A DNA stretch of 64,000 nucleotides from assembly GCF_029227855.1 (NCBI RefSeq), contig NZ_CP074357.1; one strand, 5' to 3'. Origin of the DNA: Escherichia coli (lineage in GTDB: Bacteria > Pseudomonadota > Gammaproteobacteria > Enterobacterales > Enterobacteriaceae). The stretch's first letter is position 1. Every line of letters starts with the position of its first letter. The position numbers were made by a program. Below, in pieces: positions 12,001-18,000 of the stretch.

Positions 12001-15000
12001 ATGCCTCGTCATCAGTAACCTCGGGCCGGTTGCTAAGAGTGATGTCACGGATGTCTGAATTGAAGCGGTGCTCGTTCTCATCGCAATACCAGTTCGCCCG
12101 GTAAGTACGGCTGGAATAAGTATTCCATTCGCTCGTGAAAAGACATTTACCACCGATGGCATCAAATCCGCTTCGCAGTCCACCTATCCCTGCAAACAGA
12201 TCGATAAAGCTAAAGTGCCTGTCCTCATAATCAGCAGGTCGTGAAGGTATTAAAGTCTGTAGATAGCGTCCATCTGCGATACTCAGCTCACAATGCTCAG
12301 GTATGCATGTAACCTGACGTTTAAGGGATGCACGGGACCAATTACTGCCATTTTCATCATTTAATACCTGAGCCAGATATTTCAGGTCATAAATGGTCGA
12401 AGCTGTTAACAAAGTTTTGTGGATCAGAGATGGTGTTTTATCCACATCATTCAGGTCTGTCTCAAGATCATGAGTGTAACGTTTCATCCAAACTCTCTCA
12501 GGAATAATATCTTTGAGATAGATTAACACGCTTAATTTGGATTATTTTTTGGTTCAGGTTCTAAATTTATTGTGATTATTCTGCCTTTAAGTTGCAAAAA
12601 GATTGGTTTTAAGCCCGCCCATGAAATAATGACTTGTTAAAATACTGCCTGTAAATAGGCTTGTGGATACATGTCTGTACTCAACAAATCAAGGTGAAAT
12701 GATGTTTTTTTTAACAAAGTTACTTTTGCCCATCATGATTGTTGTATTCCCAGTGGCGTCCTGGGGGAACTCAACAACTTTTGAGGCAAAGGTGGTTAAG
12801 ATTGTTGACGGTGACACCATAACTGCGTTGGATGCTCAAAACACAACCATCAAAATACGGATGTATGGTATAGACGCTCCTGAATCTAAACAGGCTTTTG
12901 GCCAAAAAGCAAAACAGGCCTTAACCACAGCTATAGCAACTAAAATCGTTACCGTGATAGACCATGGTACGGATATCTATGGCCGTATGTTAGGTACCAT
13001 CTGGTTAGATGGATATGATATCAATGCCTCTATGGTGGACAGTGGATATGCGTGGGTTTATCGGTTCGAAGATAACGCCATTGTCCCTGGCTATATCAAA
13101 TATGAATCCGCAGCACAAAAGGAGGCAAAAGGGTTATGGGCAGACACCAACCCTGTCCCACCATGGCAGTGGAGACAGGCAAACGAAAAGCCCAGAAAGG
13201 TGAAAGAGAAGAAATAACCATGATGAAAGAGCCTCATCCGTTACTTCAGTTGGTACTAAACGATTCCGGTCGTCTAACCATGCCTGTTTATTATAGAGAT
13301 CAACAGTATTGCCCGACTTGCCTTACAAAGGTGTTGAAGAGTGAGGATGGAAGTTTGGCGCACCTCGGGGAAATAAATCAAAATACATGTAGACCTTCTA
13401 TTTCAGTAGTTGTGACAAAAGCAATTATTGAAATGTTATGTGACGGGGAAAAAATATATGTAAATCCAATACGACACCGAGGCCGGGTGCTGGCACCCTC
13501 AGTAATTTTTTCTCCCGACACTCACACTTTCAAACCGTTTATAAATACAGACTATCAGCCTGTGGGAGCAAACTGGAAAAGTGAAAAGGGATATAAACTC
13601 GGTCTGTTTTATCTCAAAGATCGAGCCAACTCTATCAATAAAGAGGAATTTGATTTCATTGCCGTTATAGACCCTGAGGCAATGCAGAAAGAATTTATTT
13701 CGGCCTGGTCTGAGGTTGATGAAAAAAATCCATTGGAAACGCTGAAGCAGATCTTACGATCTAAAAACAACTCTTCTTTATGGGTAAAATGGCCTGGCAA
13801 AATTGAGCATGCGCAAAAAGGAAATTACAACGAAAATTACTGGTTCGATTATCAATCTGATAATCAGGAAGTGAACTGTACGGTCTCTGTTGTAGGTATC
13901 GAAGGTAACAGTTCCGGTGAGACAATTTATAGATTGCAAACTTTGCTAAAGCGTAAGCTCAATGAATATCAACTGGTTCGGTCTTTAGGGACTATTATGC
14001 TTCTTGATAATACCGGGAATATGATTCCATCAAACCATCCTTATTTTGAAGTCATCTCAAAAGCATGTATAAATGGAGTGCGTGACTTTGTTCGTCAAAA
14101 CCCGTGGGTAGTCTGACGGTCAACTATAAAGCATAATATAATTAGTAATAACAAGGAACAGACATGAATGAAAACTCAGTAATCTTAATAAGTTTATTTT
14201 GGTTTTTTTTGGGATCGAGTGTTGTAGCTGGTTTTATGGATGCATCATTATATTGCTGGATTTTTGCAGCCATAAGCGCATTGTTTCTTCTTTCGGTGAT
14301 ACAAACACCAAAGGAGTTAACGGTATCTATTAGTCATATGACAAGCAAAACGCTGATCTCAAAGACAGATGATGGATACACATTTAGCATTTCACCTTAC
14401 GGAGACGGGTACCGCTTATCAGTCTCGCCTGAAAATCGTCACAATGGTACCCAAAGCTTTGACGGCTGGTTCCCACGTTTTTTTTCCGAACCACAGTATG
14501 CCAAATCATCTTTAACTAAATTTCTCGGTGAGTCCTTAGTATGGGAAGAAGATTCAAGTAATGCTCTATGAGATTACTTATTATAAATTTTTCTATTAAT
14601 CTCCATGGAGTGATATATGAATTTGGCCTATTTTTTATTTTTGTCTATAACTGTTATGCTTACGAGCTTTATTATTAAATCACTTGTCGTATTGGTAAAG
14701 TTCAAATTACTTCGTGATGAACGTCTCGAATATACCAGCAATAAAAATATTGATGAGATGTACGATTTAATGAATGCGAAGGAAGAAATCCTCATAAGGC
14801 ATCATAAGCAGATGTTGGCATTGCATCTTTCACTATTAATATTCGTTCTATTTATTGCTTACATTTACTAAAAATAATTTTATTCAACATTTCAACAAAG
14901 GGTTTTCAATGGAAAGCTTCGAAACTGAACAAATGATTCAATATGCTTTCTACATAAATATCGTAATAACGACTGGTTTGGCATGGTTTTGCTTGCGGTC

Positions 15001-18000
15001 AGGATTGCATTACAATTTTTTCAGAAAAGCAGAGAGTGCCAGAACAAAAGGGCTGAGTAGTACCTCTACTGAACACGGTCCAGCAATAGTGAGACTAAAG
15101 AAGCTACAAGCATTAGTAGATTTTATTAGTAACTGTGCTTTTCTAATCCTTTCAATTGGCACAGCTTATATTTTGTATGTTTGGAGCCACAGTTAACTCA
15201 TACGAGGTAACTTCGGCAGGTAACAACTTCTAATGCAGGACTTTAATAACTCTAAGGGATTCTACATGAAAAAAGACGATCTAATTACGCGTTGTAAATT
15301 ACTTAAAGGCGAACGCGATGAGTCTATCTTTACCATATTAATTGGGATAGTAGTAAAGCTGGGGCTGGTAGGCCTGGCATTCTATCTGTTGCTTGGTTCC
15401 ACGATTGATTGGTCAAGCTGGAAAACTTATGCCGCCATGTTGATCTTGGGAGCATTTCTCTAAAATCTTGAACCTTTTTTCACTCATTACAAGCCATGAC
15501 CTAGTGCGTAGATCATACGATCTTTAAACCTTATGTCATTGATTTATAAGTACATATAACAAAGATTATGTTAAATACTGTATGTATGTACAGCATCAAC
15601 AGTTGCCCCCCTCATATTGAGGTAATTGCTACATTCATACCACTATTCTTCTTATAGTATCGACATCCTGAATTATTGCACCCTACTGCTTTGTCTTTAG
15701 CTGTTCCGAATTAAAATTCATTGCTCAATTTGGATCACATGACGATCAGCGTATTCCTTTGCTTTATCAAAGTTAAGTTTTTAAAACATAAGATATGTAA
15801 TGACAAATTCTCAATCTGATTTTCCTTTGAACGATCAAAATTTTCAGGCAGATTTGCTGAAAATCAAAAAGGTTTTCGCCGACCTTATAACGCAGGCATC
15901 AGATGGTAAGATACCCATAAGGTCTTCTCATGTACACGGCTTACACCATTTCGAGGAGCTCTACATCCGGGCAAGAGCAGGCATGTGTTCGGTCCTGGGA
16001 TATCCGGTCATGGTTGTTTCAACTATCTCAGTTAAAGAGCCCGGCACAGGCATTTTTAGAGCGCTTCTTGCAGAATTGAAATGTATTGCAGATGAACAAA
16101 ATTACATTTTGAAAATTGAAAATGTACTGCCTCCCCTATTCCGCAAATACCTTATTCAAGAAGGTTTTGTTTTCCCAGGTGAACCTTGGATGTGTGGTTC
16201 CGGCTATTGGTTTAAGAACCCACAAGTACTTCATGAAAATATTGAGTTATTATCTGTTTAAGTCGATCTAACAATTTCACTGGAGCTAACATGTCCCCGG
16301 AATTGGTATCAGACATTGCAAGAGTGGCGCATGAAAAGCTACTTTCAATTTTAACGGAGTGCGGCATAGAGAAGACGGCAGGCACTTGCCTTTTTGCAAG
16401 CTATCTTGTGTGTTATTTAGCAAAAACTAAAGGTCTAGATGCTGTTGTCCGTGGGGGTAACGGTGCAGATGATGGCGGTATATTTATAGAGTGTGGTGGC
16501 TTTGGCCATTATTGGTGTGAGTTGAATTTCGAAGAAGTGCAATATTATATTGACATCACTTCCGAACAGTTTGGGTTTCATCCATACATAGTGAAACTCG
16601 CCAACGATATAACAGGATGGCCTCGATATATTCCTGGTGATCAGGAAACGGTCGATAGTCATTTAGAACAATTATTACGCGACGGCTATACAGAATAGGC
16701 TGCGTATACCCTATCGCAGCCTTTCAGGCTCTTAACCCTTGTGACCTGTTAACGGAACCACTCAGGATGACGCTGCCGATCAACTTTGATAACCTGCGAA
16801 TTAAATTCAACGACATCCGCTGGAGTAAGCATTAATTCATCAGGATTTACAATAAATGGTCTTAAAACCACTTCGCCACCGTCTTCTTTTGCACCGTAGA
16901 TATTAATAAGAAAGTGCAGTCGTTGATTTCCTTCAGCATTGCGTTGCCATTCTCTAAAAGTCAAAGTTTGTTTAATATAGTTTGTTAAAAGAAATGCGAA
17001 TTCAGATTCTTCCGTTTGTGAGATACCGATTTTGTTAGACATTTTTTTTAGTATCTTTCCGAGCATGGACACACAGGCATCTAGACTTAACGATGTTGAA
17101 ATTTTGGTCGTATTAAAATCCTCCTGCGAAAGTGAAATCATCCATGTATTATCTTTATGATAGTCGGTAATATAAATAAAATGAGATGTAAAAGGCGTTG
17201 AGTGATTGAACTCTCCTAAGTTCCATCCATACTGACTCACTGTATTTGAGCTAAGTTCTTTGTCGGTAATGTTCATAATTCATACCTTTCGATAAAGTCT
17301 GTAATGATAATTAGCTATCTCAAAGGACCAGAACAACTCTTGAAATAACCACACTCGAAGAATTTATCATATTGAACACCCCTACCTAATAACCTTGCCG
17401 ACTTAATAAATCACAATAGCCCTCCCCTGACATTTTAAAATGCTACTTGAATTTTTGATAGCTTATGGTTGTTTTATGTTCTTTGTGATACGCATATGTC
17501 ATCTTCTCTTTCCAGTACCAATCTTGTAGATCCTGCAAGTCTAGCCCATTTTTCTCACGTATGCTTTCGTGTAATTCGCTAAGCGCGAGTTTATCATTAG
17601 GTTTATAAATGGCTAATTTTTCTTCAAATAAATCCAGCCAACGTTTCCCCATCTTACGACGCAAAACAAACACCATCGTGATAAATGTAATGAAATGCAC
17701 AGCAATTAGTTCCAACTTATGCGATTGCTGACCAGATAAAATTACTATTGTAACAACAGGGATGGCCGTATATAAAGCAATCAAAGCGACCATAAGTTGG
17801 TATGGTTTTTCCCGTATTACCATGTTCATGGGTAAACCAGAGGACGCTACTGCTTGCCAAAATCTTAAAGGGGAGCCCGCAGAATTCGGAAAAAATCGTA
17901 CGCTAAGGTTTTCCGGGCATCCGTAAGGGCCGAAACTTCCCGTCTTCCAGTCTGCGGCTCTGCCGCCAGACGTAATCGCCGGTTAGGTTGATGTGCTCCC

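Follow-up and report, generated by a model that had tools for sequence, protein, structure and literature searches.

The window analysed here, a 64,000-nucleotide stretch of an Escherichia coli contig (NZ_CP074357.1), carries five co-oriented open reading frames (ORFs) directly behind a gene for an exported SNase-type nuclease. The first, orf298, encodes 298 amino acids (aa) and is followed by four small ORFs of 135, 84 (o84), 95 (o95) and 65 or 76 aa (o65/o76). The structure of the locus is quite probably that of a backbone pair, nuclease and orf298, with a mosaic and dispensable set of small envelope proteins behind it, one of them a deletion fusion. On balance, the best overall explanation of the locus is a conserved IncHI backbone nuclease unit joined to a variable small-gene array. 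Loci of relatives are given below by their L numbers.

The original prediction, made from the sequence, placed five ORFs on one strand behind the nuclease gene in low-GC DNA. All five were present on the + strand at the positions listed in Table 1, and the low G+C content was borne out (0.40, 0.39, 0.30, 0.37 and 0.41 for the five ORFs in order). The bin 14001-15000 had a G+C content of 0.346, against about 0.47 for the bins of 9001-12000. Between 14117 and 15500, ORFs of at least 60 aa covered 88% of the + strand and 0% of the - strand; composition-preserving shuffles gave a coverage of 7% +/- 10%, and the observed 88% was reached in none of 1000. Each ORF was preceded by a Shine-Dalgarno (SD)-like sequence, with spacers of 2, 47, 45, 37 and 69 bp in order. 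The run is thus real and non-random. The frames of the small ORFs were intact across more than 1000 plasmids, and a comparison of neighbourhoods showed that the ORFs are conserved in related plasmids, so that the predicted run stands. Hydropathy analysis gave one to two transmembrane (TM)-like segments for each small ORF and none for orf298. The description of the four small products as hydrophobic helices with little else fitted three of them; the fourth, of 135 aa, proved to consist of two TM helices and a conserved 77-aa soluble domain. Profile searches of these ORFs against Pfam, NCBIfam, PHROG and PADLOC returned noise only, in keeping with the view that nothing in them is recognisable by motif.

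The gene that heads the unit belongs to the SNase family. Its product matched PF00565 with an E-value of 4.6e-24 (85.4 bits against a cut-off of 21), its translation contains the motifs DGDT, GIDAPE and YGR, and its N-terminus carries a hydrophobic, signal-like segment (MFFLTKLLLPIMIVVFPVA); it is annotated as a "thermonuclease family protein". The ATG of orf298 lies 2 nucleotides past the nuclease stop codon in the window, the two genes overlap by 4 nucleotides in L006 and L007, and across relatives the two genes are separated by 2-12 nucleotides or share the 4-nucleotide overlap. A SNase gene was found directly upstream of orf298 in all near and mid-distance relatives with a readable gene context: in IncHI2 variants with 73-88% orf298 identity, in the IncHI1 plasmids pMAK1 and R27 and in chromosomal islands at about 52%, and in a metagenomic contig at 37%. 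The pair was also retained in L018 (E 6e-24) and L020 (E 1.6e-14), relatives detected by profile only.

The product of orf298 had no match among Pfam, NCBIfam, PHROG, PADLOC or PDB sequence profiles and no fold match, and its AlphaFold2 (AF2) model had a mean predicted confidence (pLDDT) of 72. A word-indexed search of a database of 5.8 billion proteins recovered 34 clusters of relatives, all from Enterobacterales plasmids, islands or metagenomes, while an exhaustive profile (hidden Markov model) search of 1.84 billion representatives recovered only 25 proteins at E<=1e-3, none of which had a Pfam domain above threshold. Scanning of species-representative genomes yielded one short contig; the family resides on plasmids and islands that are missing from such genomes. 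The alignment of the family (A1) contains 40 invariant columns, including FDFIAVID, GETI and LLLDNTG, and orf298 conforms to the definition of its own family: about 300 aa, these three motifs invariant, and a gene immediately 3' of a SNase gene. Orf298 is thus a genuine cytoplasmic protein of narrow distribution, and its gene is tied to the position immediately after the nuclease gene; from this gene order we conclude that it is a putative dedicated partner of the plasmid nuclease. Assignment of orf298 to the PD-(D/E)XK or CoiA-like nucleases was considered and rejected, as there was no profile or fold similarity to the nuclease core.

The pair forms part of a plasmid backbone. About 5.3 kb around the five ORFs was 100% identical to hundreds of Enterobacterales plasmids of 150-310 kb (e.g. 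pSTM6-275), and these are typed as IncHI2A, MOBH and MPF_F, which identifies the window as part of an IncHI2 plasmid. The block was found in about 1100-1300 plasmids of PLSDB and in 283 of 5426 complete E. coli genomes. On its upstream side the gene order DUF4942, 401 aa, DUF1173, 55 aa and Dcm, then SNase and orf298, was constant over the whole range of 37-100% orf298 identity (IncHI2; the IncHI1 plasmids pMAK1 and R27; chromosomal islands; metagenomic contigs), and the Dcm/DUF1173 block was kept alongside the nuclease-orf298 pair in IncHI1, IncHI2 and the chromosomal islands.

Downstream of orf298 the picture is one of change, beginning with the 135-aa ORF. This had been taken for a small membrane protein in its own right; it is instead an in-frame fusion of the first two helices of a 104-aa protein to a 77-aa soluble protein (o77). 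Residues 1-56, with TM-like segments at 5-25 and 27-46, showed 73-77% aa identity to the starts of L10_104 and L7_96, three-TM proteins of 96-104 aa encoded in L010 and L007, and the corresponding DNA differed from L011 (pDR25-1, an R478-like IncHI2 plasmid) by 1 nucleotide. The C-terminal 77 residues were 96-99% identical to free-standing 77-aa proteins of the IncHI2-like loci L010 and L007. More distant relatives of o77, at 50-69% identity, are soluble proteins of 72-76 aa in IncHI1 pMAK1, the chromosomal islands, contig L006 and a Pantoea plasmid, and an alignment of seven sequences, reaching down to 50% identity to the window copy, retained 27 invariant columns.

Alignment by blastn placed window positions 14000-14331 on L011 3865-4196 and positions 14332-15465 on L011 4727-5860, and the break point was identical in comparisons with L010 and L012. 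The 530-bp segment missing from the window takes in the final 48 codons of the 104-aa gene, an entire 85-aa membrane gene and the leader of o77 save 6 nucleotides; in pDR25-1 both the 104-aa (WP_001005009.1) and the 85-aa genes are called by PGAP. Inspection of the sequences at the junction disclosed no evident microhomology. The AAGGAA SD sequence ahead of position 14164 has survived, whereas the internal ATG at 14338 has been stripped of its leader, and translation is therefore likely to yield the 135-aa fusion. In PLSDB the deleted form is present in about 660 records (at least 99% identity) and the undeleted form, which R478-like IncHI2 plasmids keep, in about 460.

The ORFs o84 and o95 encode membrane hairpins in which the loop of 35-40 aa is charged and the second TM helix reaches the C-terminus; because of the positive-inside rule these loops should be cytoplasmic. 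Compared with L010, o84 carried 5 synonymous and 2 nonsynonymous differences, with a ratio of nonsynonymous to synonymous substitution (dN/dS) of 0.09 (P=0.0045 against neutrality); the ratio was 0.23 against L007. For o95 it was 0.19 against L010 (P=0.0014). These values (0.09-0.23) indicate that both genes are under purifying selection, as judged from the alleles compared. The ORF lying right after orf298 in L009 encodes an 86-aa homologue of o84 (L9_86), which was supported by end-to-end alignment (z=8.1; 0 of 500 shuffles) and had been missed by BLASTP with composition correction. Homologues of o95 were found at 92% identity in L010, at 54% in L007 in another array position, and at 35% in L003 and the chromosomal islands and in IncHI1 pMAK1 (WP_000429174.1, E 5e-15). 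Homologues of the small proteins at 27-35% identity keep their length and topology. Paralogy among the small proteins was considered and rejected: only the orthologous pairs o84/L9_86 and o95/L3_99 scored above shuffles. In the RefSeq annotation of pTB-nb4 no coding sequence is called between the 135-aa and 65-aa genes, leaving o84 and o95 unannotated, and nearly all IncHI2 rows of PLSDB have "none" annotated beneath the o95 match.

For the last ORF the predicted length of 76 aa is partly upheld. All four alleles preserve the ATG at 15233 in frame, yet no SD sequence precedes it, and PGAP starts the gene at 15266 to give 65 aa. The gene occurs in IncHI2 only, where its alleles show 100% or about 86% aa identity, and the evidence that it is coding is weak.

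Together these comparisons identify the ancestral small genes of IncHI2 as those for proteins of 104 aa (3 TM), 85 aa (2-3 TM), 77 aa (soluble), 84 aa (2 TM), 95 aa (2 TM) and 65/76 aa (1-2 TM). Their complement varied widely among relatives. L007 has nothing in the usual o95 slot, where 5 bp replace a 336-bp segment containing o95 (window 14896-15231), and a 54% identical copy of o95 lies instead between the 85-aa and 77-aa genes (L007 8749-9173), beside a duplicated 3' remnant of the 85-aa gene; the o95-type gene thus acts like a movable cassette. L012 carries a frameshift in its 104-aa gene. In L009 the o84-like gene is joined only by one for an unrelated 187-aa protein, and o77 is lacking; L006 has two unrelated soluble ORFs ahead of o77, and the IncHI1 plasmids have a phospholipase D (PLD)-family gene between orf298 and o77. 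The most widely conserved small gene is o77, which goes with the nuclease-orf298 pair in IncHI2, IncHI1, L003 and L006. Since some loci have the pair but none of the small genes (L018), these genes need not belong to it functionally, and the array is separable from the nuclease-orf298 core.

Such differences in gene sets among relatives place the array, separable from the core, at the edge of a hotspot, and by gene content the cargo appears to be of defence type. In chromosomal islands (L002/L005 8235-9691) the slot after orf298 or after the small genes holds the Thoeris genes ThsB-TIR and ThsA-Macro. In IncHI1 R27 and pMAK1 (L014 7835-10179; L017 22384-24417) the same slot holds a PLD-family protein, with weak similarity to DrmC, and a DUF3800 protein. 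Other cargo in relatives included a type VI secretion system cluster (L006) and insertion sequence elements.

The arrangement of the genes suggests that they may be co-transcribed from the nuclease promoter: spacers measure 2-69 bp, no terminator-like site was found between the array genes, and a conserved SOS box lies downstream. The latter, a near-consensus LexA box (TACTGTATGTATGTACAGCA), was conserved in position in L007 (10261), L010 (10365) and L009 (11841), and the genes behind it differ, encoding 153 aa in the window, 540 and 158 aa in L010, and 154 aa in L009. The box would mark where the next, SOS-type unit begins and hence where the small-gene unit ends; its sequence and position suggest that an SOS-regulated unit follows the array. 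Two identical LexA-box-like sequences (TACTGTGTTTACATACAGTC) were also seen at window positions 27984 and 32268, in the GC-rich transposon/integron part. A sigma-70-like match in the spacer behind orf298 was identical in L011 and not conserved in L010 or L007. An Rfam search of 12000-18000 found no relevant RNA family, the sole match being an archaeal snoRNA model (E 0.53).

Published microarray data for R27 bear on expression. R0153, labelled "partition protein", and R0154, a cytosine methylase, were 2.9 and 4.7 times higher at 25 C than at 37 C and were among the few non-tra genes higher at 25 C (PMC7366339). By R27 gene order, R0153 would be the nuclease and R0152 the orf298 homologue. By analogy with these IncHI1 homologues, the unit in the window is probably also expressed more highly at the temperature permissive for conjugation.

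Table 1. Features of the nuclease-orf298 locus and its surroundings, in window coordinates.
Feature	Position	Strand	Remarks
Dcm-type C5 methyltransferase (489 aa), 55-aa ORF, DUF1173 (439 aa)	9490-12529	-	operon divergent from the nuclease gene
SNase-type exported nuclease	12702-13217	+	heads the unit; 171 aa when started as in PGAP; GTG at 12663 is an alternative start
orf298	13220-14116	+	298 aa
Sigma-70-like match, CTGACG-18-TATAAT	14113-14142	+	10/12 matches; spacer between orf298 and the next gene; possible internal promoter only
135-aa ORF (fusion)	14164-14571	+	
5' part of the fusion	14164-14331	+	codons 1-56 (two TM helices) of the ancestral 104-aa three-TM gene
Deletion junction	14331/14332		530 bp of L011 (4197-4726) missing from the window
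o77, 3' part of the fusion	14338-14571	+	conserved 77-aa soluble protein; native 5' untranslated region deleted save 6 nucleotides
o84	14617-14871	+	84-aa hairpin: TM, charged loop of ~40 aa, C-terminal TM; SD sequence GGAG
o95	14909-15196	+	95-aa hairpin: acidic N-terminus, TM, basic loop, C-terminal TM
o65/o76	15266-15463 (65 aa) or 15233-15463 (76 aa)	+	a single clear TM at about residues 21-43 (numbering of the 65-aa form); C-terminus short and hydrophobic
LexA box	15576-15595		within the 336-bp gap that follows the array; differs from the consensus applied at 3 positions; chance expectation, none

Upstream, the locus is flanked by a pco (copper-resistance) block and the group DUF4942, 401 aa, DUF1173, 55 aa and Dcm methyltransferase, and downstream by hypothetical proteins and then a Tn3-family transposon with resistance cargo. 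DUF1173 has been predicted to be a PD-(D/E)XK nuclease (PMC3045609), and given that prediction the trio of Dcm, 55-aa ORF and DUF1173 might resemble a restriction-modification system; the top PADLOC model for the methyltransferase was "orphan methyltransferase" (E 3e-206). The whole DUF4942/DUF1173/Dcm/SNase/orf298 block, at IncHI1-like divergence, also occurs inside chromosomes (L002-L005, 4.8 Mb contigs, e.g. CP010512.1), which suggests an integrated IncHI-related element or a shared island. Beyond the array, window 15800-17829 holds four conserved hypothetical genes with no family match: those for 153 and 135 aa on the + strand, and on the - strand those for a 175-aa protein, 75% identical to the product of an L009 gene, and a 128-aa protein with 2 TM segments. 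The plasmid family has H-NS and Hha genes of its own.

Several results weigh against the account of a nuclease-orf298 backbone unit with its array. Because orf298 matches no fold or family, gene order alone links it to the nuclease, and its remotest relatives (P0067 and P0068; E 1e-7 to 1e-6, on large-plasmid-like contigs) have no adjacent SNase gene. L018 keeps the pair with no small genes at all. The dN/dS of o65 (0.6-0.85) is indistinguishable from neutral, though all four alleles are intact in frame. That the commonest lineage has lost one gene and fused two others without harm argues that any function of the array can be dispensed with in the conditions sampled. As for expression, the counts from the promoter and terminator scan equalled the shuffled expectation, and the supplement of one IncHI2 RNA-seq paper held no per-gene values for the block.

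What the locus may do can be stated only in graded terms. In a tentative functional reading, one that we consider possible but hold loosely, orf298 would modulate the nuclease and the hairpin proteins would serve as protective envelope factors. Orf298 would work from the cytoplasm, regulating or inhibiting the nuclease or assisting in its assembly. The hairpins would insert in the inner membrane with the charged loop in the cytoplasm, and would be dispensable, fast-evolving accessory factors of the envelope, protective in the manner of immunity or exclusion proteins and not enzymes. A bolder form of this reading, which is quite unlikely, holds that the nuclease and orf298, perhaps with o77, constitute an undescribed conjugation-switched module in which orf298 would neutralise or control the nuclease, and that the hairpin array comprises new families of envelope immunity or exclusion proteins.

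The possibility raised by the original prediction, that immunity, entry exclusion or abortive infection is the role of the small membrane proteins, which would block incoming DNA, toxin or phage or kill the infected cell, found some weak encouragement in the fast turnover of the array and the Thoeris and PLD/DUF3800 hotspot, and no direct support; we regard it as somewhat unlikely. Small hairpin proteins of the inner membrane in a rapidly changing mosaic array would be consistent with it, as would the hotspot that adjoins the array in relatives and an AT-rich composition of the kind usual in acquired accessory DNA. In size and topology the proteins are comparable to T4 Imm and to many bacteriocin immunity proteins. 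On the other hand, orf298, the fusion, o84, o95, o65 and the ancestral 104-aa and 85-aa proteins matched no PADLOC-DB v2 family at E<=1, no PHROG match was significant, and no toxin, bacteriocin or tra gene is adjacent or, for tra, nearby. Exclusion in IncHI is already assigned to EexA/EexB, three of the seven array genes are deleted or fused in the dominant lineage, and o77, the array member kept most widely, is soluble.

Alternatively, orf298, o77 and the membrane proteins may all serve the exported nuclease, by inhibition, tethering, export, release or regulation, and this we consider unlikely. Secreted nucleases with dedicated inhibitors or holin-like helpers are familiar (barnase/barstar, NucA/NuiA, Serratia NucE). 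The strict adjacency of the SNase gene and orf298, with a geometry suited to translational coupling and maintained over deep divergence, argues for such a module, as does the company that o77 keeps with the pair. Against this, the small membrane genes are missing in L018 and o77 in L009, ORFs for PLD, 107-aa and 114-aa proteins can intervene between orf298 and o77, the small proteins do not end in the charged tail seen in holins, and the nuclease has a signal peptide of its own.

That the small ORFs, orf298 excepted, are functionless remnants in decaying or silent DNA, cheap to carry under H-NS silencing, is decidedly improbable. The omission of o84 and o95 by PGAP would fit decay, and so would the deletion and fusion in the dominant lineage, the frameshift of the 104-aa gene in L012, the near-neutral dN/dS of o65, the very low G+C content (0.30 for o84) and the H-NS and Hha encoded by the plasmid family. 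Yet o84 and o95 show a significant deficit of nonsynonymous change, homologues at 27-35% identity retain length and topology, o77 has its 27 invariant columns, the frames are intact in more than 1000 plasmids, and the density of ORFs arose in none of 1000 shuffles. Selection and deep conservation argue that the view of the DNA as pure junk fails for o77, o84 and o95; it may hold for o65. Highly improbable, finally, is a toxin role, in which peptides like type I toxins or holins would depolarise the membrane for post-segregational killing or lysis: the proteins are indeed small and hydrophobic and Hok-type toxins exist elsewhere on IncHI plasmids, but at 65-104 aa, with two TM segments and long charged loops, they are unlike Hok, TisB and Ldr, the Rfam search of 12000-18000 gave no antisense-RNA family, no endolysin gene is nearby, there was no PHROG holin match, and the C-termini end inside hydrophobic segments. 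Holins as a class were rejected on the position of those C-termini in o84, o95 and o65 (within the hydrophobic segment or 2 residues past it), the want of a lysozyme or endolysin gene in the locus and the PHROG result, and the type I toxin-antitoxin class (Hok/Ldr/TisB) on protein sizes of 65-135 aa, mostly two TM segments and no relevant Rfam match.

A nuclease-orf298 backbone pair with a variable array is a modest, curation-level result that will not surprise specialists. The sequences have long been known, mostly under the label hypothetical, and the families are orphans restricted to IncHI-type elements. IncHI2 plasmids are major carriers of mcr-1, extended-spectrum beta-lactamase and metal-resistance genes, and in more than 1000 of these clinically important plasmids two conserved small membrane genes (o84 and o95) are missing from RefSeq. 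The 135-aa fusion provides a lineage marker that separates the deletion-bearing lineage from R478-like plasmids. The establishment or protection of IncHI plasmids may be approached through the nuclease-orf298 pair, which seems to be co-regulated with an orphan Dcm at the temperature of conjugation.

Among known systems, the first gene of the unit resembles RP4 ParB (parCBA) in that a large conjugative plasmid encodes a nuclease of the SNase fold bearing an export signal at its N-terminus, and we suspect that the label "partition protein" in R27 reflects this similarity. The likeness concerns the neighbouring gene only: what follows the nuclease in the window is the gene for the orphan 298-aa protein and then small membrane genes, and not a resolvase or ParC. 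PMC11493245, citing Gunton 2008, attributes exclusion in IncHI1 (R27) to EexA/EexB, and with these the array shares the plasmid family and the location of plasmid proteins in the envelope. The array differs in adjoining a methyltransferase/nuclease block and resistance cargo rather than tra/trh genes. No exclusion-protein family scored above noise in Pfam or NCBIfam, the array proteins not having been aligned directly to EexA/EexB.

Phage superinfection-exclusion and bacteriocin or microcin immunity proteins (T4 Imm, colicin V immunity) are, like the array proteins, 65-100 aa long with one to three TM segments and little besides, fast-evolving and often encoded in AT-rich accessory DNA. The array proteins depart from them in their unusually long (~35-40 aa) charged central loops and in having no cognate toxin gene, and searches of four libraries (Pfam, PADLOC, PHROG and NCBIfam) showed no sequence or profile similarity; a Pfam scan of the neighbouring genes in distant loci was uninformative. 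With defence-island hotspots the comparison is one of position. Relatives fill the slot behind orf298 or behind the small genes with Thoeris, PLD/DrmC-like and DUF3800 genes, whereas in the window the same slot is occupied by the small ORFs only.

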